IMG/VR virus record: IMGVR_UViG_2526164650_000003
Strand: one strand, 5' to 3'
DNA length: 22,610 nucleotides
DNA from: a virus
Lineage: Duplodnaviria; Heunggongvirae; Uroviricota; Caudoviricetes
Position numbers and translations under genes: made by a program. The notes beneath the pieces were generated by a model. That model was not told the origin of the DNA. It made no database searches and worked only from the letters and a program-made list of their open reading frames with translations. Shown one piece after another: positions 1,341 through 22,610 of this stretch; position 1 is the stretch's first letter; every line of letters starts with the position of its first letter.

Positions 1341-4300
1341 TCAGCTGATACTGATACCTGCTGTGGATTTCTTCATCACAACAACCAGCAAATCGCTGAT
1401 ACTTGCTGTGGGATACCAGCCATTTACCAGCCATGCCGATACAGAAAACTCCAGCGTCATGTGACCGTGACCGGCAGGCATATCAATAACACCCGTATAT
1501 ATCAGCGTATTATCCAGGGTCGTTCGGTTATAAATTTCAGCACCGTTTTTCTTCACTATCAGGCGGCATGACGAATAAATATTGTTATTCTTCCGCTCAT
1601 GTTTAGCACCGCGAAACGCCACCGCGGGAATAACAATTTGCCGATCAAACGGCTGATCGTCATAAACCCTGACGGTAATGGTCCCTGATGGCCACCTCTC
1701 CGGTGCCCGGGAGTCCCGTGGGAAAGGTTTGCCCACTGTTTTAACGAGATCGCCTTCAATCTGGTTCGCGGACAATTTTCCCAGAACCCGACAGTTCTTA
1801 TTAATCGTGACGTTGTTGAGCGTCCCGGAGTTCGCGTTCACGTTACCGCTGATATCGGCATTTTTCGCCGTCAGCCGTCCGCCAGGTGTCAGGGAAAATG
1901 CCGGAGGATTACCGCCGCTGGTAATGGTCGGAGCCGTCAGGCGTTTCAGGAACACGTCGTTCATGAATATCTGATCGCCCTGACCAACAAACATCGGCTT
2001 TGTGTTGCCATTCGCAGGATTAATCATCGCAATCCTGTCTGCCGCCAGCAGCACCTGACTCTGCATTCCTGCTGGCGTATTCTCAATACCGGCACCGATA
2101 CCCGCAATATAAAGGCGTCCGTCCTTCATCTGTTGCAGCTTCACAGCCCACATGCTGTTCAGGTTATTATTTGTATCAACCTGAACTTTCTGTATCTGCT
2201 GGATTGCAGCACTCTGATTTTCCAGTTTTTTATTGACGGTTTGCGTGATTTCATTGCTGACATTCGTAATGGACGTCCTGATTTCAGTCAGGTCCGGCGC
2301 AAGCTGACCGTTATCAATCTGCGTCCACAACTCCTTGCCGAGATGCGTTTTATTGATCAACCCTTTATAAAAACTCAGATAACCTTCCGCATCATCGCTC
2401 GCCCGACCGACGGCCTCCACAAATGCCGATTTGCCAACGGTGTTCACACTGCGAACGTAAAAATAATAATCATGGCCCGGCCTGATATTGATACTGGCGG
2501 CTATCCAGTACAGCGCCGTGCCAAGATAGCGGGCGCTGGTTTCAACCTGCCTGATATCCGCAATCCGCTTTTCCGAAAACCAGAACTCAAACTGCACCGT
2601 CGGGTCATATACAGCCAGTTTCGGGACCACCGTTATCTGAAAATACCCCGGTATCAGTTCAATAGTGACAGGCGCTGCCGGTGCCGCAATCCGGAACGAT
2701 ACCGACGCCGGATCGCCCTGCTGCCCCCGGGCATTTACCGCCCGGACTGTCAGACTGTAATTCCCCAGCGCCAGCTGCCTGAAGCGGTATGTGGTTTCCG
2801 TCGTCCTGGCTGTGCTGACCAGCCGCTCACTGCCGTCGTCCGCTGCCACGGTCAGGCGAAGCAGGAAGCTCACACCCTTCACCACCTTCGGCGTGTCCCA
2901 TCGCGCCAGCACCTGATATTCCCCGCTGTCTGCGGTGACTTCGGCGGTCAGATGCTGCACCGCTGGCGGCGTGACACCATTCACCGTGCCGCGCCGGTCA
3001 CCGTCAAAGTGTGCCCCGTTATCCACGATGGCCTCTTTTTCCGGCACATGCTGCACGGCGGTGATGGCATACGTGCCGTCGTCGTTCTCACGGATACTCA
3101 CGCAGCGGAACAGGCGCTGGCGCAGCGTCGGCAGCTTCAGCCCCCACACGCTGTATTCTGCAACGCCGTCAGGAACCCGGCTCACTTTCACCTTCACGCC
3201 GTCGGTGACGGACTGAACCTCCACGCTGACCGGATTGCCATTTCCGTCAACCAGGCTTATCAGCGTGGTACCGGAGGACGGCAGCGTGATTTCACGGTCG
3301 AGCGTCAGCGTCCGGGTCTGGCTGTTCACCGCCAGTACGCGACCACCGGTGCTGATACCGGCATAATCATCATCGCAGATTTCAATGACATCACCCGGTA
3401 CATGGCGAAGCCCTTCTGCGCCGACGCTGAAGTCCACGGTCTGCGTTTCCAGCAGTTCCGTTTTAATCAGCCACAGCCCGGCGCGGTGCGCCTGTCCCCG
3501 GCTGGTACAGCCAAAGGCATCCATCTTCGTGACGTTACGACCGTAACGGACAATGGCCTGCGTGTCCTCCACAAGCTCTGTCGCCGTCTCATGACCGTTG
3601 TCCGGATCAATCCAGTTCACCTCAACGACATTATGGCGGTCCTTCAGGGCGCTGAAGCTGTAGCGGAACGGCGCGCCATCATCCGGCATCACCACATTAC
3701 TGCGGTTATAGGTCCACACTTTATCCGACGGTCGGTCCTGCACGAACGTCAGCGTCTGCCCGTTCCATACCGGCATACAGCGCATCGCCGAGCAGAAATC
3801 ACTGAGAACATCCCACGCCTTACGCTGTGTGGTCAGGTAAGCGTTACAGGTGATGCGCGGCTCCGTGCCGCCAAATCCGTCCGGCACTGACTGGTCGCAG
3901 TACTGGCCGATGACATACAGCGCCCATTTGTCCACATCTGCCGCACCAAGACGTTTCCCCATGCCGTAGCGCGGATGAGTGAGCATGTCCCACAGACACC
4001 AGGCCATGTTGTTGCTGTATGCTGGCTTAAGCGTTCCGTCCCAGATACCGCTGTATTGCCGCGTCTGCGGGTTATAGTTCGACGGCACCTGCAGAATGCG
4101 CCCGCGAAGATGATAATTGCGACTCACCTGCTGGTTACCGAACTGCTCTGAATCCACCTGCACGCCGACCAGCGCCGTGTTCGGGTAGCACTGTTTCACA
4201 TCGATGATTTCGGTGTACGACGACCAGAGCGTTTTGTTCTGCAGCTGGTCTGTGGTGCTGTCCGGTGTCATCCTGCGCATCCGGATATTAAACGGGCGCG

Positions 4301-4820
4301 GCGGCAGGTTACCCACCACCACCGAGGCCAGATACTGCGAAGTGGTTTTGCCCTTAATGGTGATGTCTTTTTCCGTCACCCAGCCACCGTTACGCTGTAT
4401 CTGAACCAGCAGGCGGACTTCCGACGGATTCCGGTCCCCCTTTGAGGTGGTTTCCACCAGTGCCTGCACACCGAAGGTCAGGCGCAGACGATCAATGTTT
4501 GCCGACGTGATGGTCCGGGTGATCGGCGTGTCGTATTTCACTTCCGTACCCAGCACAGTCTCTGAGCCGGAAGATTCAAACCCCTCCGGCGGTGTCTGCT
4601 CCTGCTCGCCGGCGCGGAACACCACCGTAACACCGGAAAAGTTTGTCTTCCCCTCGCTATCCAGGACCGGCGTACCGTTCAGCAGCACGCTTTTTAATCC
4701 ATCCACCGGACCGTCAACCGGCCCTTCGCTGATGGCATCAATCACACTCAGCAACTGCGTGGATTTCAGGTTGTCCTTCGCTTCGCGCGGGGTATGCCCC
4801 TTACTGCTGCCTTTACCCAT
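1341..4820 (-). CDS. J: Tail tip host-specificity protein J (central tail fiber)
   Basis: Uninterrupted 1159-aa ORF, size and position as lambda J (recalled as 1132 aa); N-terminal [14 protein letters not shown] motif resembles lambda J; follows I in lambda order. Confidence 0.9.
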
Positions 4821-5522: not shown

Positions 5523-6163
5523 TTGTCGGTATACCTCTCTCGTTTACTCAGTTGTTCAGGAATATGGTGCAGCAGCTCACCATCGCCGCAGTAAATGGCG
5601 GCATGATTCGGCACCGATGAACCAAAACAGCACAGCAGCACATCGCCCGGTTGTGCTGATGACAACGGCACCTGATACAGCCCTGTGGCCTCCAGATTAT
5701 CCAGATAGAGATTCTGACCGTGACGCCACCAGTCATCCCCGCGATGAAAATCCGGCATCTCGATCCCCGCCAGATGATAAGCATCCCGGAACAGCGTGTA
5801 ACAGTCCGTCACCCCGTGCTCAAAGCGCCGCCCGGTGAGATGCGGCACACAGCGGAACTTGTGAATCGTCCCCCGGCAGACCAGCCACCACGGCAAATCA
5901 CTCTGCACCTGCAGCCGCCGGTCAGCCTCACTCAGCCAGGGCAGACCACCGGGATGACTGTGGACCAGTGCCACAATCTCACCCTGCATTTGTGCCCGCA
6001 GCCAGTCCTCCGGAGCCATCCGGAACCGTTCCTCCGGCTCACCGGAGATATTCTCGCTGGGAAGATACCTGTCTCCCTCCGGCGTTCTCACCACGAAGCC
6101 ACACGACTCCGCTGGCGCACATCGCCGGGCGTGCGCCAGAATCGCTGATTCTGTCTGTGTCAT
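5420..6163 (-). CDS. K: Tail assembly protein K (probable MPN/JAB plus NlpC/P60-like domains)
   Basis: ATG at 6163..6161, 4 nt after the L stop, reads MTQTESAILAHARRCAPAESCGFVV...HSHPGG... (247 aa). The ORF track's 335-aa version is an upstream extension running into L. The 3' end overlaps I by 103 nt. Confidence 0.8.
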   Translation of the reverse strand: MTQTESAILAHARRCAPAESCGFVVRTPEGDRYLPSENISGEPEERFRMAPEDWLRAQMQGEIVALVHSHPGGLPWLSEADRRLQVQSDLPWWLVCRGTIHKFRCVPHLTGRRFEHGVTDCYTLFRDAYHLAGIEMPDFHRGDDWWRHGQNLYLDNLEATGLYQVPLSSAQPGDVLLCCFGSSVPNHAAIYCGDGELLHHIPEQLSKRERYTDKWQRRTHSLWRHREWHASAFTGICNDLAAASTFV

Positions 6164-7195: not shown

Positions 7196-10100
7196 TACCG
7201 GTATGCTCCACTTAACCGGCCACCATCACGGGCCTGCTGTTGCATAAAGTCCGCGGCCGCTTTTTTCCCGAGGTCATAAACCACCTTCAGGGCAGCCGGA
7301 CCTATCTGCCCGTTCGTGCCGTCGTTATTGATCTCAATGTTGTACTGCGGGGCAAACATCACCATGCCTGAACCACCAGTATCCGCCACAACCCCCAGCT
7401 TACCATCAGCACCGCGACGCAGTGGCAGAATGGCTTCAGGTCCCGCTTCCCTCATCACACCCGCGCCTTTTGCAAAAGCAAAAAACGTCGGACGGTTAAC
7501 CACCGTGCCACTGTAGCGACTCAAATCAGCAGACTGGTAAACACCGCCATCAGCATTAGTCGTGAAGCCGAATAAAGAACCGACGCCCTTTACCGCCTGC
7601 ATCATGGCCATCTGTGCCATAATTCTGGCCATATCTGACAACAGGGAAGAGGTGAAGGATTTAAAATTCAGCTTACCGGTGGTACAGAATGTCGCCAGTG
7701 CATTACCGGCACTGCTGAATGCCACTGTAAACATCTGTTCTGCCGTTCCCGCCGCATTATCCGCATCCGCCGTAAAATTCTGAAACGCCCGCATGGCACC
7801 GTTTTTCCAGTCGCCCTGCGCCACTTCCAGTTCCTGCCAGTAGCGTTTGTTTTCATTCAGTTGTCGCTTCAGGCTCCCCTTCAGCACCTCCTCAGCCCTC
7901 CGGTAGTCCTCCGTCCCGTAAGTGCCTTTCTGGCGACTGTCATTCTCAAGCTGTTGCAACTGTTGCCGGTATTCCTGCCGGATGCGCAACTGTGCCTGGT
8001 AGCGCTGCCGCTGCTTATCCCCCATACCTGCAGTGGCAATATCCAGATTGTGCTGCTCACGCAGTGCACGTTCTTTGTCTGCCAGCTGGCTGGTCAGCTG
8101 TAACCGTTTTTTTCTCTAGGTCGTTAAGCGTCTGTCTGTTTCTGTCAGCTCCTGTCTGTTTCACATCCAGCAGCGTCAGCGCCTGAATCAGCTCATTCTT
8201 ACGGGCCAGCACACTCTTTTCATCTGCCGTCAGCTTTTTCCCGTCCAGGTCGCTGATGCGCTGCTGCAGGGCCAGAAGCTGTTTATGCGCTTCAGTCATC
8301 CTTTCAGTGGCAATGCCTGCTGACTGTCTGGCAGCAGCAATCTGCCCTTCCACCTGTGCCTGCTGCTGACTGTACTGCAGCAATAACCGGGTGGCCTCAT
8401 CATTACGGGTTGCCCGTGTATTTTTCTTAATGGCTTTTTCGTAACGTTCATTTTCACGCTGTATCGCCGCATCCCTGACAGCCTGGTCGGCGTACTGCAT
8501 GGCATTAATACGCGCAATTTCCCGCTGATGTCGTGCAGCTTCCGTTTCATTCATCCGGTTCAGCGCGGCATTTTCAGCATTCCGGCGTTTCTGTTGCTCC
8601 TGGTAATTCCGTTCTGCCTGCGCTTTTGCATCCTGCAAATCCTTCCGGCGTTTTTTCTCCTGAAGATCGTTAAGACGCTGCTGATCGTACTCCACCTGTG
8701 TGGAGGCGTTTGTCCACGGATATTTTTTCGCGCGCTGAATTTTTTCCTGTAACGCATCAATCTGCGCATCCAGCGAGTCTTCACGACCAATATTCATGGC
8801 CGCATCCCAGAACTGCTTCCACCAGTCAGACAAGGTTTGCAGCGTACTACCCAGCGCATTGAGATTATTATCAATATCAGATGTGCGTTTACCGGTTTCC
8901 TCTGCCAGCGCAGACATGGCGATCCGGGCCGCATCACTGGACCGCCCCTGCTCCCCAAGGACGCGTATCTGCTCAAGCTGAGTGGCATTCAAAAAATGCA
9001 GCGCATTGTCCAGCGCCTTCGCGGCATTTACAGGATCATCCTTCAGCCGCTTAAACTGATTTATGGTATCGCTGACCGACTGGCCAACCGATCGCTCCAT
9101 CTGTGCGGCAGCTTTCGCCACCATACCAATATCGTTTGCATGAAATGCCCCACTCGCCCACCACCTGTGCCAGCGCACCGGCTGCCGCATGTTGCGTGAT
9201 ACCATTCCCGGATATGGCCCGGCTGAGTTTCCACAACTGCCCGACAGTGACACCGGCATAATGTCCCGTCAGCGCCAGCTGACGGTTAAATTTCTCGCCC
9301 TCCTTCCGGCCGTCATGCCAGGCTTTACCCAGACCCAGGACCGCCGCGACAAGTCCGCCAATAACGCCGCCAGTCATCATGCCTTTCGGTGACATCAGTG
9401 CGCCTGTCCATCCGGCACGGTTAGCCAGCGTTATCCCGGATCCCCTCAGCGCACCAAAATTGCCTCGCGCCATCTGACTGATTAACACCCCCAGCTCCCG
9501 CCGGGCTGCCGCACTTTTCAGCCCCAGCGAATGTGTGGCTTTTCCTGCCCGCTCCATTTTGCGGATATACACTTCTGCAGCACTGCTTACCCCCAGCTGA
9601 GCCGCCCTGGCGCGAAGCAACTCAGAAGACGACAGATTCTGGCGGGTTGCCTGCTCTTTAAGCTGGCGGATAAACGCCGCTTTCTGCCGGGTGGCCTGTT
9701 CCTCTGCCTGCGTCAGGGCACGGGTTTTCGCCGTGATCTCCGAAATCAGCGCCAGATAATCCTGCTGACCAACCCCGCCACTGTTTCTGGCCTGTCGGAT
9801 CTGCTGCTGAATACGCTGTAATTCCTGAAGCCCCGCACCGGCCTGTTTCACACTGTCAATCTGGCGATAAAAGGCGGCAGCCGCTTTATCCTGCGCCTCC
9901 GCCAGTGCCCTGGCCTGCGCCTGTTCCTCGCGCATTTTCTGATTCAGGGTCATCCACGCGCAGACGGGTTTGTTCCACCTCACGGGCCATGCGTTCATGA
10001 GCCCGTGCATTCTTCTCCACCGTCTGCGCATGGGCTGATGCTGCTGTTGCAGCCGAAGAAGCCGCCTGCATTGTCTGCCGGGCCGCCTGAGTCTGACGCT

Positions 10101-18615: not shown

Positions 18616-18789
18616 AAGCGTTTTATCTTCAACGGGAATGAGATATGGAAACGTGGAGAATCAACCACAGAGTATACCCGCGCACACCAGCGAACAATCA
18701 GACGACTGCGCAGACTCATCGCCAGGAAACAGTATACAGAAAAATGGTTCAGAAAATATGACACATGGAGCGCCGGATATTACGAACTG
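18616..18789 (+). pseudogene. Start-less ORF fragment immediately right of the IS600-like element
   Basis: Open frame ...EYTRAHQRTIRRLRRLIARKQYTEKWFRKYDTWSAGYYELMATKPF with protein-like composition but no ATG/GTG start after the upstream stop; likely 5'-truncated. Confidence 0.25.
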
Positions 18790-18870
18790 ATGGCAACAAA
18801 ACCATTCTGACGTAAACGAAATTAACCATGACGCAATTAAATAAGGCAAGCCGAATACATCAGGAGGACC

Positions 18871-19059
18871 ATGAACATTTATTTCAGAATAGTTATATCA
18901 CTGGCAATTATCGCATGTATTTACGGATTAATCGTTCCGGCCCTCATATCAATGAAGGATACGGTAGCAGTGATTTCTGGCTTTGCTCTGGCGTGTCTGA
19001 CCCCGCCCTGCATTTATGCCATTTATAAGGGTCTTTCTTTTTCTAAGGATAAAAGATGA
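18871..19059 (+). CDS. Small two-pass membrane protein (62 aa)
   Basis: Strong SD caggagg 6 nt upstream; two hydrophobic helices (IVISLAIIACIYGLIVPALI and VAVISGFALACLTPPCIYAIY); its stop overlaps the ATG of the next gene (ATGA). Confidence 0.6.
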   Translation: MNIYFRIVISLAIIACIYGLIVPALISMKDTVAVISGFALACLTPPCIYAIYKGLSFSKDKR

Positions 19060-19883
19060 AAAAAGTTATTCCTGCTTTAGCCCTTGTTCTGCTGACCACC
19101 GGACTTGTCGGTTGCGATCGCGTTGAGCCTGGTAATGTTGGCATCAAGGTAAACAAACTGGGCGACGATAAAGGCGTCGGAGAAGTGGTCGGTGTTGGGC
19201 GCTACTGGACGGGATGGAACACTGAGGTTTACATCTTCCCGACCTTCAAACAAATGAAGACCTACGATGAGCCATTCAGCTTCCAGATGAGTGACGGTAC
19301 AACCATCGGCTATCACATCGGCGTGGCCTACAAAGTTGATCCATCCAAAGTTACCACAGTCTTTCAGACCTACCGCAAAGGCGTGGACGACATTACCGAC
19401 ACCGACCTGCGCCAGAAGATAGCCGACGCACTCAACCGACTGGCCAGCAAAATGACCACCGACAAATTTATCGACGGCGGCAAGTCTGAGCTGCTGGATG
19501 CAGCTCTTAAAGACATTCAGGAAGAAATGACGCCCATCGGTATTCAGGTAATGAGCCTCTCATATGTGGGTAAGCCGGAGTACCCGCCTACTGTTATCGA
19601 CAGCATTAATGCCAAAGTCACGGCGAACCAGAAAACCCTGCAATGCGAGCAGGAAGTAAAACAGCGCGAAGCGGAAGCCAACATGTTGCGCGCGGAAGCT
19701 GCCGGACAGGCAGATGCGATTCGCACAAAAGCCCAGGCCGAAGCCGATGCTATTCGTTTACGCGGTGAAGCTCTGCGCCAGAACCCAAACGTTATGGAGC
19801 TGGAAGCCATCAACAAGTGGAACGGTACACTGCCGCAATACATGACCAGCGGTGCCAACACACCATTTATTCAGGTTAAGTAA
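19056..19883 (+). CDS. SPFH/band-7 (prohibitin/HflC-like) domain lipoprotein
   Basis: 275-aa ORF with a lipoprotein signal peptide and lipobox (LLTTGLVGC, Cys20), a band-7-like core and an Ala/Glu/Arg-rich coiled-coil tail (EQEVKQREAEANMLRAEAAGQADAIRTKAQAEADAIRLRGEA) typical of SPFH proteins. Confidence 0.65.
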   Translation: MKKVIPALALVLLTTGLVGCDRVEPGNVGIKVNKLGDDKGVGEVVGVGRYWTGWNTEVYIFPTFKQMKTYDEPFSFQMSDGTTIGYHIGVAYKVDPSKVTTVFQTYRKGVDDITDTDLRQKIADALNRLASKMTTDKFIDGGKSELLDAALKDIQEEMTPIGIQVMSLSYVGKPEYPPTVIDSINAKVTANQKTLQCEQEVKQREAEANMLRAEAAGQADAIRTKAQAEADAIRLRGEALRQNPNVMELEAINKWNGTLPQYMTSGANTPFIQVK

Positions 19884-19926
19884 TACATATGCCCGGTATT
19901 ACACGCCGGGCTGTCTGGAGATAAAA

Positions 19927-20676
19927 ATGAATACTGTAACCATCAACAACAAACAGTTTCCGGTAATCGAATATCGCGGTCAGCGTGTTGTGACGCTGGC
20001 GATGATTGATGAAGTCCACCAGCGACCGGAAGGAACCGCGCGTGCAGCATTCAACCGAAACCGTGAGCATTTCATCAGCGGTGTGGATTATGCCGAATTA
20101 GGTGCGGACGTAATACGTACGGACCTCCCGGAAGGAACATTCTCTAAATTTGCACCATCGGGGATTGTACTTTTTGAATCAGGTTACCTGATGTTGACGA
20201 AGCCATTCAATGACGCCCTTGCCTGGCAGGTTCAGCGCGAACTGGTTAACAGCTACTTCCGCACTCGCACACCGCTAACGGAAATCGAGATGATCGCTGC
20301 GATAGCCGCCGACGCTGTTCGTCAACAGAAGCGCCTGAATCATGTGGAAGAACAGCTCGAAACAGTCACAGAAGCGGTGGAAACCATCAAACGCGGAAAT
20401 ATGCGCGCCGGATATGTCGGTTACCGCCAGGTGGTAGCCAAAAGTGGAATGAGTGACACCAAGTGTCGGAATCTGGTGAACGCATATCAAATTCCTACAG
20501 ACACCCACGAATTCATGACTCCGGACGGTCTGTTGTCTCGCAGGGCTATCGTCGAGCTTGAGCCATTTATGGCGGCGTTCCACCAAATGATGTCAGAGGC
20601 TGACCCACGCGGCACACGCTGGTATCACCCGAAGATGGGGCTTTTCCAGGTGATCGGATGGGAGGATAAAGCATGA
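19927..20676 (+). CDS. KilA-N/ORF6N-family DNA-binding protein (antirepressor-like) with unknown C-terminal domain
   Basis: Start at MNTVTINNKQFPVIEYRGQRVVTLAMIDEVHQRPEGTARAAFNRNREHFISGVDY, a pattern typical of KilA-N/ORF6N N-terminal domains of phage antirepressors; SD ggag upstream. The ORF-track version carries a 25-aa upstream extension. Confidence 0.55.
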   Translation: MNTVTINNKQFPVIEYRGQRVVTLAMIDEVHQRPEGTARAAFNRNREHFISGVDYAELGADVIRTDLPEGTFSKFAPSGIVLFESGYLMLTKPFNDALAWQVQRELVNSYFRTRTPLTEIEMIAAIAADAVRQQKRLNHVEEQLETVTEAVETIKRGNMRAGYVGYRQVVAKSGMSDTKCRNLVNAYQIPTDTHEFMTPDGLLSRRAIVELEPFMAAFHQMMSEADPRGTRWYHPKMGLFQVIGWEDKA

Positions 20677-21242
20677 TCATCCAGTCAAAACTTATTCGCG
20701 CCGCTCTGGTGTGCGCTGCTAAAAACGACGTTCGTTATTACCTGAACGGTCTTCACATCACGCCGAAACATATTGAGGCAACCAATGGTTCCGTGGCACT
20801 GCGCATGGCTCACGGCATCCGGACGAAGAAAAACATCATTGTCCAGTTCGAAGGGGGCGTCCCGGCCAAAGCCGAAACGACAGAGCTGATTTTTAGTAAA
20901 GAGCCGATCGCTGTTCATCGCGACCAGTTTCAGCGACGACTGTCCATTACCGGCATTAAACTGGTGGACGGTTGTTTTCCGGATTTGGATCGCATCATTC
21001 CGAAAAAGTTTGACCGCTGTACTCACCCGGTGCTCCAGGCGGGTTACCTGAGTTATCCAGAGAAGATGTTTGGTCGTGAGCGTAAATTTATTCCCGTCCA
21101 GTTACGTCCCTCCGGTGACGGGCAAGCGGTCAGAATTCAGTTTGATTCCATCATCAACTCAATGTATGGCAATCCTGAATTTGTTGTGATGCCTTGTCGT
21201 GATCATGGCGATTTCAACGTGGCTCAGGAGCATCCGGAATGA
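20673..21242 (+). CDS. Truncated DNA polymerase III beta sliding-clamp (DnaN) homolog, 189 aa
   Basis: Three collinear DnaN-like motifs: KNDVRYYLNG (cf. DnaN QDVRYYLNG, start of domain II), IKLVDGCFPDLDRIIPKK (cf. SKLVDGRFPDYRRVLPKN, domain II-III linker) and EFVVMPCR near the C-terminus (cf. AYVVMPMRL). Start overlaps the upstream stop (ATGA). Confidence 0.6.
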   Translation: MIIQSKLIRAALVCAAKNDVRYYLNGLHITPKHIEATNGSVALRMAHGIRTKKNIIVQFEGGVPAKAETTELIFSKEPIAVHRDQFQRRLSITGIKLVDGCFPDLDRIIPKKFDRCTHPVLQAGYLSYPEKMFGRERKFIPVQLRPSGDGQAVRIQFDSIINSMYGNPEFVVMPCRDHGDFNVAQEHPE

Positions 21243-21361
21243 AAATCGAATACCAGGACGCCGCAGGAGGTGAATCAATGAGCTGGCCTGATGCAATCGT
21301 AACTCTGGGGATGGTATTCGCAGTAGCGTTTGTTGTGTACTCGATTTGTCGATGGGGATAA
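21239..21361 (+). CDS. Small membrane peptide (40 aa from ATG 21239, or 27 aa from ATG 21278)
   Basis: MKIEYQDAAGGES-MSWPDAIVTLGMVFAVAFVVYSICRWG. The first ATG overlaps the DnaN-like stop (ATGA); the internal ATG has a perfect SD aggaggt 6 nt upstream. A single hydrophobic helix. Confidence 0.4.
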   Translation: MKIEYQDAAGGESMSWPDAIVTLGMVFAVAFVVYSICRWG

Positions 21362-21365
21362 CCAC

Positions 21366-21608
21366 ATGTTCGCTTTGATTCAACGCGGGCAGATATACAC
21401 AGACAGAGCCGGATACCCAGTAGAAATTACTCGCAGTACTGAGCACTCAGTGTTCTTTCGGAGGATGGACGGACGTACCGGGCGAGTACGCATCGGTGAA
21501 TTCAGTAGCCTGTTCGAGCATATTGACCACCTGGAATATCACAAGATTCTGGCTGAAACAGAACAAGAAAAGCACCTGAAGAAATTACGCGCAATGCAAA
21601 GGAAGTAA
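21366..21608 (+). CDS. Small phage protein of unknown function (80 aa)
   Basis: MFALIQRGQIYTDRAGYPVEITRSTEHSVFFRRMDGRTGRVRIGEF...; tightly packed in the operon 4 nt after the preceding stop. Confidence 0.5.
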   Translation: MFALIQRGQIYTDRAGYPVEITRSTEHSVFFRRMDGRTGRVRIGEFSSLFEHIDHLEYHKILAETEQEKHLKKLRAMQRK

Positions 21609-21611
21609 AAA

Positions 21612-21758
21612 ATGAATAAAGCGTTTGAGCTATGGGTCCACCAGCGTTACGGCAACCACTACGACCTGACGCGAGATGTTGACGGTTTCTACTGTCGTGA
21701 AATTGTGAAACGAATGTTTGAGGTCTGGTGCCACTGCCGTGGGCTGAGTGTTGTGTGA
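21612..21758 (+). CDS. Small Cys/Trp-containing phage protein of unknown function (48 aa)
   Basis: MNKAFELWVHQRYGNHYDLTRDVDGFYCREIVKRMFEVWCHCRGLSVV; SD aaggaag 8 nt upstream; below the ORF-track length cutoff. Confidence 0.4.
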   Translation: MNKAFELWVHQRYGNHYDLTRDVDGFYCREIVKRMFEVWCHCRGLSVV

Positions 21759-21766
21759 GGTAATGC

Positions 21767-22610
<844 letters not shown>

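Follow-up and report, generated by a model that had tools for sequence, protein, structure and literature searches.

What would a phage do with a band-7 protein of the SPFH family, and with a very small membrane protein encoded directly ahead of it? The question is raised by IMG/VR virus record IMGVR_UViG_2526164650_000003, a stretch of 22,610 nucleotides of caudoviricete DNA that we analysed as a whole and call the window. A first-pass annotation had proposed that positions 18871-19883 encode an SPFH/band-7 lipoprotein translationally coupled to a small two-pass membrane protein. The match to PF01145, the lipobox, the ATGA overlap of the two genes and the two predicted helices bear out this description of a phage-borne pair. 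On the evidence set out below, the two proteins probably form an inner-membrane, periplasm-facing SPFH ring or cage that contains the small protein as a 1:1 subunit and is made with the early lytic genes.

The two overlapping genes

Reading of the sequence recovered both open reading frames (ORFs) at exactly the coordinates of the first-pass annotation. The features of the pair are as follows.

18862-18867, plus strand: Shine-Dalgarno-like AGGAGG, 5' of the small ORF (read from the sequence)
18871-19059, plus strand: small ORF, 62 residues, gene of a predicted two-helix membrane hairpin (ORF; phrog_1130)
19045-19049, plus strand: Shine-Dalgarno-like AAGGA for the SPFH gene, within the 3' end of the small ORF (read from the sequence)
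19056-19059, plus strand: ATGA start/stop overlap of both genes (read from the sequence)
19056-19883, plus strand: SPFH lipoprotein precursor gene, 275 residues (PF01145; phrog_200; AlphaFold2 model; Foldseek)
19056-19115, plus strand: lipoprotein signal peptide with lipobox L17-V18-G19-C20 (sequence; Cys20 invariant)
19119-19679, plus strand: SPFH/Band_7 domain, residues 22-208 (Pfam; sheet and helices in the model)
19587-19781, plus strand: long Ala/Glu-rich helix, residues 178-242 (DSSP of the model; aligns with the HflK coiled coil)
19815-19835, plus strand: C-terminal motif K-W-N-G-T-L-P, residues 254-260 (alignments A1, A2 and A4)

The TGA stop codon of the small ORF (19057-19059), which encodes MNIYFRIVISLAIIACIYGLIVPALISMKDTVAVISGFALACLTPPCIYAIYKGLSFSKDKR, overlaps the ATG start codon of the SPFH gene (19056-19058), an arrangement consistent with translational coupling of the hairpin and SPFH genes.

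We counted codon changes among 54 distinct, ungapped versions of a 1,010-nt block found in related prophages. Read in its own frame, the small ORF has 398 synonymous and 389 non-synonymous changes, and the other two frames of the same segment have 95 and 694, and 91 and 660, respectively. The corresponding counts for the SPFH gene are 2314 and 465. The own-frame excess of synonymous changes indicates that the small ORF is under purifying selection, weaker than that on the SPFH gene. Together with the homologs found beside SPFH genes across bacterial phyla (see below), it argues that the small ORF is a real gene rather than a chance reading frame.

Both products are already in public databases. 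The identical SPFH protein is recorded from Shigella flexneri as a 'putative serine protease'/SPFH protein (Q7UAC9_SHIFL) and the identical 62-residue protein, from the same species, as an 'uncharacterised protein'; each exact sequence is found on at least 1000 contigs. The labels 'serine protease' and 'SPFH serine protease' recur in GenBank, in phage phiP27 (AJ298298 L05), Stx2-converting phages (LC5678xx), phage Pylas (Pylas_029), Kosakonia and Yersinia. We rejected this label because Pfam detects no protease domain in the protein, and it looks like a propagated misannotation.

The SPFH lipoprotein

The 275-residue protein matches PF01145 over profile positions 2-176 of 176, with 108.2 bits against a cut-off of 23.6 (E=6.3e-31), which places it inside the SPFH family, as had been supposed from the sequence. 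It also belongs to PHROG phrog_200 (E=6.4e-114), whose label is 'lipoprotein', and a BFVD search returned only uncharacterised viral Band 7 proteins. In NCBIfam, only HflC and HflK are matched, with 22-24 bits against cut-offs of 134-159. The cut-offs of the equivalog models TIGR01933, TIGR01932, NF008181 and NF008259 are not reached (15-24 bits against cut-offs of 134-660). Sequence relatives in the PDB are HflK chains only, the best at E=3e-4.

The precursor starts with MKKVIPALALVLLTTGLVG, followed by C20-D21-R22; its N-terminus is basic, then hydrophobic, and the lipobox fits the [LVI][ASTVI][GAS]C pattern. Cys20 is invariant in alignments A1, A2 and A4. Across the family, a lipobox-like signal lies directly ahead of the SPFH domain in 113 of the 143 full-length representatives, and the remainder have an uncleaved hydrophobic N-terminus. 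The Cys is followed by Asp-Arg in 104 of 153 cluster representatives, and most enterobacterial members have Asp at position +2. In the Lol sorting system of Escherichia coli (Enterobacterales), Asp at +2 is an inner-membrane retention signal. From Asp21, we infer that the mature lipoprotein is kept at the inner membrane.

The AlphaFold2 monomer model (35 sequences in the alignment; predicted local distance difference test score, pLDDT, of 76.6) comprises an SPFH alpha/beta domain with strands up to residue 175, a helix spanning residues 178-242 and a short helix at residues 244-254, followed by a low-confidence C-terminal tail. Foldseek aligned the model over its full length with PDB entries, at E=1e-13 to 1e-7 over 250-300 columns. 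These entries were the human prohibitin complex (8rrh), HflK/C (7vhq, 9cz2 and 7wi3), erlin1/2, stomatin, flotillin and QmcA (8z5g), all of which build closed rings or cages. In the model, the helix of residues 178-242 appears equivalent to the coiled-coil wall of SPFH cages. The C-terminal motif has the family form K-W-(N/D)-G-x-L-P. Its W255 and G257 do not vary in A1, A2 or A4; the same holds for P260 in the closer alignments, A2 and A4, and its conservation in A1 is at least 90%. By our positional comparison, the motif would lie where solved SPFH cages close on top.

The hairpin protein

Two hydrophobic stretches make up most of the 62-residue protein, at residues 7-26 (mean Kyte-Doolittle hydropathy 2.75) and 32-52 (1.75). 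A single N-terminal Arg precedes the first stretch, a five-residue loop (SMKDT) separates the two, and the C-terminal tail carries a net charge of +3. The positive-inside rule predicts an N-in/C-in hairpin with SMKDT as a short periplasmic loop. Pro23 and Ser27, the sole invariant residues of the family (alignment A6), are placed at the periplasmic end of helix 1.

The protein belongs to PHROG phrog_1130 (E=6.6e-24), which is labelled 'membrane protein' and filed under 'moron, auxiliary metabolic gene and host takeover'; the small protein of phage N4 is likewise a member. Its BFVD matches are uncharacterised proteins from N4-like phages. The first-pass annotation had suggested a search of the partner with NfeD profiles. 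The window protein has no Pfam match, NfeD included, at E<=0.01, and none of 16 family members matches NfeD (PF01957) at E<=1. A profile of these 16 members found no PDB chain, YbbJ included, at E<0.07. NfeD or another known family is ruled out as the identity of the hairpin by this want of any Pfam or PDB relative. Weak, non-significant Pfam holin matches occur in the hairpin family (E=0.04-0.06).

Fused and unfused forms of the pair

To trace the pair beyond the close relatives of the window, a HMMER search over 1.84 billion representatives returned 229 clusters at E<=1e-30 and 998 at E<=1e-10. In 20 of the best 150 representatives at 50% identity, the hairpin, the signal and the SPFH part are encoded in one frame. 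The N-terminal extension of these fused forms, 55-100 residues, consists of a hairpin with a P-x-(L/M)-(I/V)-S motif, followed by a signal-like segment and a Cys. Another in-frame fusion, of 347 residues, is encoded by a P1-like plasmid (P0002) and is 91% identical to the window protein in its SPFH part. The lipobox Cys is invariant in all 21 fused forms (alignment A5, the 20 representatives and that of P0002). Its retention suggests that lipidation and cleavage by signal peptidase II probably still occur in the fused precursors, and would yield the two products in equal numbers. An AlphaFold2 model of a fused form (pLDDT 83.5) has N-terminal helices at residues 5-38, 43-68 and 74-89, and then the SPFH domain. 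The resulting three-helix topology (N-in, out, in, out) would make the SPFH domain periplasmic and tether it to the inner membrane.

A genome scan was performed with a 10-sequence alignment, taking one genome per species. It returned 66 loci from Enterobacterales, Xenorhabdus, Morganella, Sutterella, Leptospira, Bacteroidota, Iamiaceae, Dependentiae, Fibrobacteria and others. Using a hidden Markov model (HMM) of the small protein, we found a hairpin homolog directly upstream and on the same strand in 43 of 75 genome and phage loci, and the junction between the two genes lies within -19 to +23 nt in 38 of these 43. The paired loci span Pseudomonadota, Spirochaetota, Bacteroidota, Actinomycetota, Dependentiae and Fibrobacterota. 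Of the loci whose SPFH protein matches the family profile at E<=1e-81, all but three have the upstream hairpin. This synteny and the fused forms together support a partnership between the hairpin and the SPFH protein.

The loci of uncultured Sutterella differ from each other. One (L100) has a 60-residue ORF at 5759-5941 that overlaps the SPFH start by 4 nt and matches the hairpin profile at E=2 only, and the second (L101) has no hairpin candidate; these loci may represent a divergent partner or a loss. All-against-all clustering of the neighbours in the 66 genome loci revealed no third partner conserved across lineages, only lineage-specific synteny. Pfam and PHROG searches with 124 neighbours identified phage genes (GPA, gp32-like, UvsX-like, primase, NinX) and cellular genes, nothing being recurrent.

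Lytic phages and cellular chromosomes

Matches to the SPFH protein (tblastn, E<=1e-5) occur in 491 of 50,697 phage records (~1%), a number that includes SPFH proteins outside the subfamily of the pair, such as those of haloarchaeal viruses. Strictly lytic carriers include the Schitoviridae Pylas and vB_EcoP_3HA13 (species Enquatrovirus N4), the Vequintavirinae phage VIK251, the Bruynoghevirus U47 and the Ounavirinae phage Fifi318. More distant matches come from crAss-like, Lak and phiCbK-like phages, Mx1 and the haloarchaeal viruses. In all five lytic loci examined, a hairpin homolog is encoded upstream on the same strand (profile, E=3e-17 to 4e-4). In Pylas and the N4-species phage, its gene overlaps or abuts the SPFH gene, and the annotation of Pylas reads '2 TMDs N in C in'. 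The pair sits beside the RNAP2 genes in N4-like phages. Directly 5' of it in vB_EcoP_3HA13 (1847-2161 of locus L153) is a gene of phrog_1510, labelled 'superinfection exclusion' (E=1.4e-50); this neighbour is not kept beside the pair in the other lytic phages examined.

The module is also encoded by cellular chromosomes, with copies in Leptospira and Bacteroidota. Seven Leptospira genomes (L109, L114, L116, L117, L119, L144 and L150) harbour the pair in a shared chromosomal synteny beside sdhCAB, and this synteny implies that the module is cellular as well as viral. The sdhCAB genes code for a succinate dehydrogenase/fumarate reductase Fe-S subunit, a flavoprotein and a cytochrome b-like subunit. 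The same neighbourhood contains a conserved 155-residue gene of unknown family directly downstream and a gene for a CSS-motif EAL protein.

Gene order in related phages and plasmids

The first-pass annotation had placed the pair in the early-left operon of a lambdoid prophage. An intact relative, the prophage of E. coli SCU-106 at yecE (L001), has on one strand a LexA-like repressor gene, a gene for an HTH protein, small genes, a ParE-like toxin gene, one hypothetical gene and the hairpin gene, followed by the SPFH, ORF6N and 189-residue-protein genes, DUF4222, xis and int. The layout is the same in phiP27 (L002) and in the Hendrixvirinae phage Fraca (L005), with the pair, overlapping in Fraca, between the repressor and xis/int. 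The window itself lacks the repressor, the early promoter, xis and int, so that the early-left placement holds by homology with these three genomes and not literally. In the SCU-106 prophage, the region directly 5' of the hairpin gene (8598-9211) contains the gene for the ParE-family toxin-like protein (8598-8816) and a 132-residue hypothetical gene.

Other temperate phages carry the pair in other surroundings. The P2-like phage P88 has overlapping genes for the 'membrane protein' gp11 and the 'lipoprotein' gp12 in its early operon, between cox and a replication gene. A P1 variant (MH422554) also has the overlapping pair, and its hairpin ORF is unannotated, as is that of phiP27. By tblastn, 672 plasmid records encode the SPFH protein. 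Most of these replicons are non-mobilisable, measure 95-115 kb and come from E. coli, Yersinia pestis, Salmonella, Enterobacter and Klebsiella. Given this length and these hosts, rather than any typing, we read them as P1-like and SSU5/pMT1-like phage-plasmids. Among complete E. coli genomes, 724 of 5,426 (~13%) have a match.

A scan of viral contigs with the single SPFH protein returned near-identical phiP27-like loci only and informs about the limits of the cassette, not its diversity. Most of the ~80 phiP27-like IMG/VR loci have in common with the window precisely positions 18880-19896, i.e. the two genes and 13 nt, and differ from it in the flanks. Many of these loci are devoid of the ORF6N gene and the gene that follows it, and rejoin the window at 21366.

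Context of the window

The window is almost certainly a decayed prophage of S. flexneri. Around the pair, it contains the following features.

Up to ~13.5 kb, minus strand: tail and head genes, including those of a J-like protein (1341-4820) and FI (13106-13507)
13771-14967: IS110-family transposase
16153-16848, minus strand: Q antiterminator
16839-17198, minus strand: RusA; Q and RusA abut the IS3-family element and now adjoin the early-left fragment
17579-18599, plus strand: 3' part of an IS3-family element, with orfB at 17740-18558 and orfA apparently truncated (rve and HTH_21 domains)
18880-19896, plus strand: limits of the mosaic cassette, 1,017 bp (blastn of the window against loci L002-L085)
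19927-20676, plus strand: ORF6N/antirepressor-like gene (Pfam, PHROG)
20673-21242, plus strand: gene of a 189-residue protein, with a 4-nt overlap with the ORF6N gene (phrog_3007)
21939-22313, minus strand: integrase-core fragment derived from an insertion sequence (IS), with IS sequence from 21931 onward

Three IS-derived segments (13771-14967, 17579-18599 and 21939-22313) split the prophage, and the immunity and replication regions are gone. The IS3-family element is co-oriented with the pair, replaces the upstream prophage DNA and ends at ~18599, inside the preceding gene. By blastn, homology to the intact SCU-106 prophage spans 18600-21930 only and starts within that gene, the 132-residue one, of which only the last 211 nt (18600-18810) remain. 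A crude consensus scan, which is weak evidence, found no promoter-like site directly 5' of the pair in the window or in the intact prophage, where the nearest plus-strand candidate lies just past the repressor gene. The same type of scan revealed no autonomous promoter or terminator (the 'moron' signature) flanking the pair in either. The window copy is an intact passenger within a prophage remnant and has lost its native promoter.

The two genes downstream of the pair are optional, being absent from the phiP27-type relatives. The 189-residue protein carries the label of phrog_3007 (RusA-like resolvase) and gives weak matches to PF02767 (E=0.007) and phrog_947 (E=2e-4). The latter two are models of DNA polymerase III beta or processivity factors and disagree with the RusA-like label.

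Close copies of the region are found in S. flexneri SFBU1023 (L086) and E. coli ECMA0423 (L087), which are 99.9% identical to window positions 13845-22326. Both contain a 780-bp insertion (5212-5991 in L086) with IS1-type ends and a 9-bp target duplication, GGATAAAAG. The insertion, missing from the window, sits exactly at the stop/start junction (window 19055/19056) and uncouples the two genes.

A proposed role for the pair

The reading that we favour, and hold to be reasonably probable, makes the pair a membrane module of two subunits, complete in itself and carried by phages as a cassette. The first gene would provide an inner-membrane hairpin whose two ends are cytoplasmic and whose very short loop is periplasmic. 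The second would provide a lipoprotein that, once matured, consists of an entire SPFH protein, with its domain, coiled-coil helix and C-terminal cap motif, facing the periplasm and anchored in the outer leaflet of the inner membrane. The stop/start overlap is consistent with matched amounts of the two products, which one-frame fusions would achieve elsewhere. If HflK/C, QmcA-YbbJ, prohibitin and stomatin are a guide, the SPFH subunits may close into a ring or cage that covers an area of the inner membrane, with the hairpins as its membrane-embedded part. The inner-membrane localization, the 1:1 complex, the cage and the early expression are all put forward as predictions. In phages, the module would be transcribed with the early lytic genes, and it may fence off or control a component of the host inner membrane during phage development. 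Since the pair lies among early genes in the lambdoid early-left region, the P2 early operon and next to N4 RNAP2, it probably acts in lytic development and not as a conversion gene expressed by the prophage.

Several observations weigh against this proposal. An Arg directly follows Asp+2 in the window protein, and position +2 is variable (S, T, G or E) in members from outside Enterobacterales. In VIK251, U47 and Fifi318, the hairpin gene is 169-455 nt upstream of the SPFH gene, with other small genes in between, and a distant clade of Cytophagales, Bacteroidia and Binataceae has no hairpin partner detectable with the HMM. The IS1 insertion that splits the pair in SFBU1023 and ECMA0423 implies that the pair is dispensable for the Shigella host. 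Finally, an HflK/C-like protein, PM0222, has been reported in outer membrane vesicles (OMVs) (PMC9872710), and we liken it to the phage protein by description alone.

As to the client of the putative cage, we rank FtsH-type membrane quality control first. The predicted orientation is that of HflK/C, to our knowledge the one bacterial SPFH system known to face the periplasm, and the universal occurrence of FtsH would agree with a module that is also found in cells. Second comes the route by which the DNA of superinfecting phages enters the cell, on the grounds of the mobile-cassette behaviour and of the phrog_1510 gene adjoining the pair in the N4-species phage. General membrane stabilization until lysis ranks third. 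A wider proposal would be that the pair is a general, unrecognized early-infection device of lytic and temperate phages, whose cage captures a universal inner-membrane machine, either FtsH or the genome-entry channel; the hairpin would then represent a class of SPFH partner that is new, distinct from NfeD and also cellular (Leptospira, Bacteroidota). In that general form, we regard the idea as speculative and doubtful.

Alternative explanations

The first-pass annotation had suggested that the pair could tune FtsH and thereby the lysis-lysogeny decision. As a mimic or disruptor of HflK/C, it would alter FtsH activity on CII and CIII; the FtsH idea had already been raised for the Pseudomonas satellite prophage AH14b_p02 (PMC4936722). 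The predicted periplasmic orientation of the lipoprotein, its best sequence matches in NCBIfam and the PDB (HflK and HflC) and the early-left position in intact lambdoid relatives are all in keeping with this. However, the pair is found in phages that make no lysogeny decision (the N4-species phages, Pylas, VIK251, U47 and Fifi318) and beside sdhCAB on Leptospira chromosomes, and the scores of 22-24 bits are far from the HflK/HflC equivalog cut-offs of 134-159. The lytic-phage and cellular copies make a lambda-style lysogeny switch unlikely; we consider it decidedly improbable. What survives of the suggestion is that a general FtsH role, untied to CII, is possible. The same annotation had offered superinfection exclusion or abortive infection, by a complex that blocks genome entry at the inner membrane or that kills or depolarizes the infected cell. 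A mobile cassette common to unrelated phage types and phage-plasmids, the PHROG category of the hairpin, the phrog_1510 gene directly upstream in the N4-species phage, and early expression, which would suit a block during infection, speak for it. Against this, none of the SPFH, hairpin, ORF6N and 189-residue proteins matches a PADLOC-DB v2 model at E<=0.1, and the searchable literature contains no paper tying SPFH proteins to anti-phage activity. Moreover, stable chromosomal copies in housekeeping synteny point to a generic membrane function, and the lambdoid and P2-like positions imply, from gene order, that the pair is repressed in the lysogen, which would be left unprotected. The PADLOC result for the two proteins of the pair leaves the exclusion module unsupported, and we deem it unlikely.

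A lysogenic-conversion role has also been weighed, in which the lipoprotein reaches the outer membrane or OMVs and acts on the animal host, as has been reported for PM0222. The reported OMV location of that protein favours it, as does the frequency of the pair in Shigella, in Stx phages of Shiga toxin-producing E. coli and on Y. pestis pMT1, but Asp+2, the three-helix fused forms and the inner-membrane hairpin all indicate the inner membrane, and the pair occurs in lytic phages of environmental bacteria. TLR2 activation is, besides, a generic property of bacterial lipoproteins. We find this role very hard to credit, and equally so a role in lysis, in which the hairpin would be a class II holin or a pinholin-like pore former restrained by the SPFH cage, or the two proteins would make up a spanin-like couple. 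The hairpin does resemble pinholins in its 62 residues, its N-in/C-in two-helix topology and its basic C-terminal tail. Overlapping genes for a membrane protein and then a lipoprotein recall spanin architectures, and there are the weak holin matches. Nevertheless, the pair is never in the lysis cassette and lies among early genes in the SCU-106 prophage, P88 and N4-like phages; an o-spanin would be a short, proline-rich lipoprotein of the outer membrane, not a 255-residue SPFH protein with Asp+2; a periplasmic coiled coil is missing from the hairpin, which fused forms join covalently to the SPFH protein; and cellular copies exist. On genomic position and domain content, we rejected the spanin and holin identities. 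A different matter is whether the window copy is an inert passenger that lacks dedicated expression and serves no function in its present host. This concerns activity in the window genome and does not compete with a role of the module in phages. The 3.3-kb block of 18600-21930, bracketed by IS and devoid of the repressor, early promoter, xis and int, the absence of a promoter-like site upstream in the consensus scan, and the IS1 at the gene junction in SFBU1023 and ECMA0423 are in favour of an inert copy. Conversely, both ORFs are intact, with their exact sequences on so many contigs, and read-through from the co-oriented IS3 transposase gene could transcribe the pair. We entertain an inert window copy as a tentative possibility.

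Significance and comparison with known systems

SPFH cages (HflK/C, prohibitin, stomatin, flotillin and erlin) have recently been solved, and the determinants of their clients are still open. The pair is a compact phage and bacterial version of SPFH proteins with its own minimal partner and a predicted lipid anchor, and it has tractable carriers: N4-species, P1-like and P2-like phages, Stx-converting phages and pMT1-type plasmids of Y. pestis. If it forms a cage with a defined client, it would offer a simple system for the study of SPFH function and a role for a gene pair present in ~1% of sequenced phage genomes (counting all tblastn matches at E<=1e-5). On the wider, speculative proposal above, were FtsH the client, the pair would be an HflK/C substitute that shields phage membrane proteins; were it the genome-entry channel, the pair would give exclusion. 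For annotation, the 'serine protease' label is corrected, and the upstream microprotein, unannotated or 'hypothetical', is shown to be the product of a genuine, conserved gene.

Mentions of SPFH genes in phages go back to 2006 (PMC1524935), and their function has repeatedly been called unclear (e.g. PMC13239085). The SPFH gene itself was already annotated in public records, often as a 'serine protease'. In the searchable literature, we found no functional study of the hairpin-SPFH pair or of phage SPFH proteins, so that the statement of the first-pass annotation that no lambdoid function had been characterized for such a pair stands. Nor did we find there the obligate hairpin partnership, the fused forms, the lipoprotein and periplasmic architecture of the family, or its spread over lytic and temperate phages, phage-plasmids and cellular chromosomes.

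Among known systems, phrog_200 and phrog_1130 have the window proteins as clear members, and these entries give neither a function nor a partnership. T4 Imm and Sp and HK97 gp15 are phage-made inner-membrane or periplasm-facing proteins of superinfection exclusion; the comparison is functional only, with no relation in sequence or fold. PM0222 (Pmorf0222) of Pasteurella multocida C48-1 resembles the phage protein, by description, as an HflK/C-like SPFH protein of a prophage island. It differs in that it was reported in OMVs, as a virulence factor that triggers TLR1/2 signalling (PMC9872710).

SPFH-NfeD operons (QmcA-YbbJ, 8z5g; YqiJ-YqiK; FloA/FloT-NfeD) share with the pair the combination of an SPFH gene and a gene for a small membrane protein, fusions of both parts in some genomes, and a fold match (QmcA, E=7e-8). 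Their partners differ from that of the phage, which is only a two-helix hairpin with no NfeD or OB-fold and no Pfam or PDB relative. In addition, the phage SPFH domain is predicted to be periplasmic, on a lipoprotein anchor, whereas that of QmcA faces the cytoplasm.

The HflK/HflC-FtsH system (7vhp/7vhq, 7wi3 and 9cz1/9cz2) differs from the pair in its anchor, an N-terminal transmembrane helix in HflK and HflC in contrast to the predicted lipid of the phage protein. It also has two SPFH paralogs, whereas the phage module has one SPFH gene and a two-helix partner of its own, and its equivalog cut-offs are far above the scores of the phage protein. In sequence, HflK/HflC is nevertheless the closest solved relative (E=3e-4). 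It is among the top fold matches, and has the same succession of SPFH domain, coiled coil and C-terminal cap, on the periplasmic side of the membrane, where that of the phage protein is also predicted to lie.

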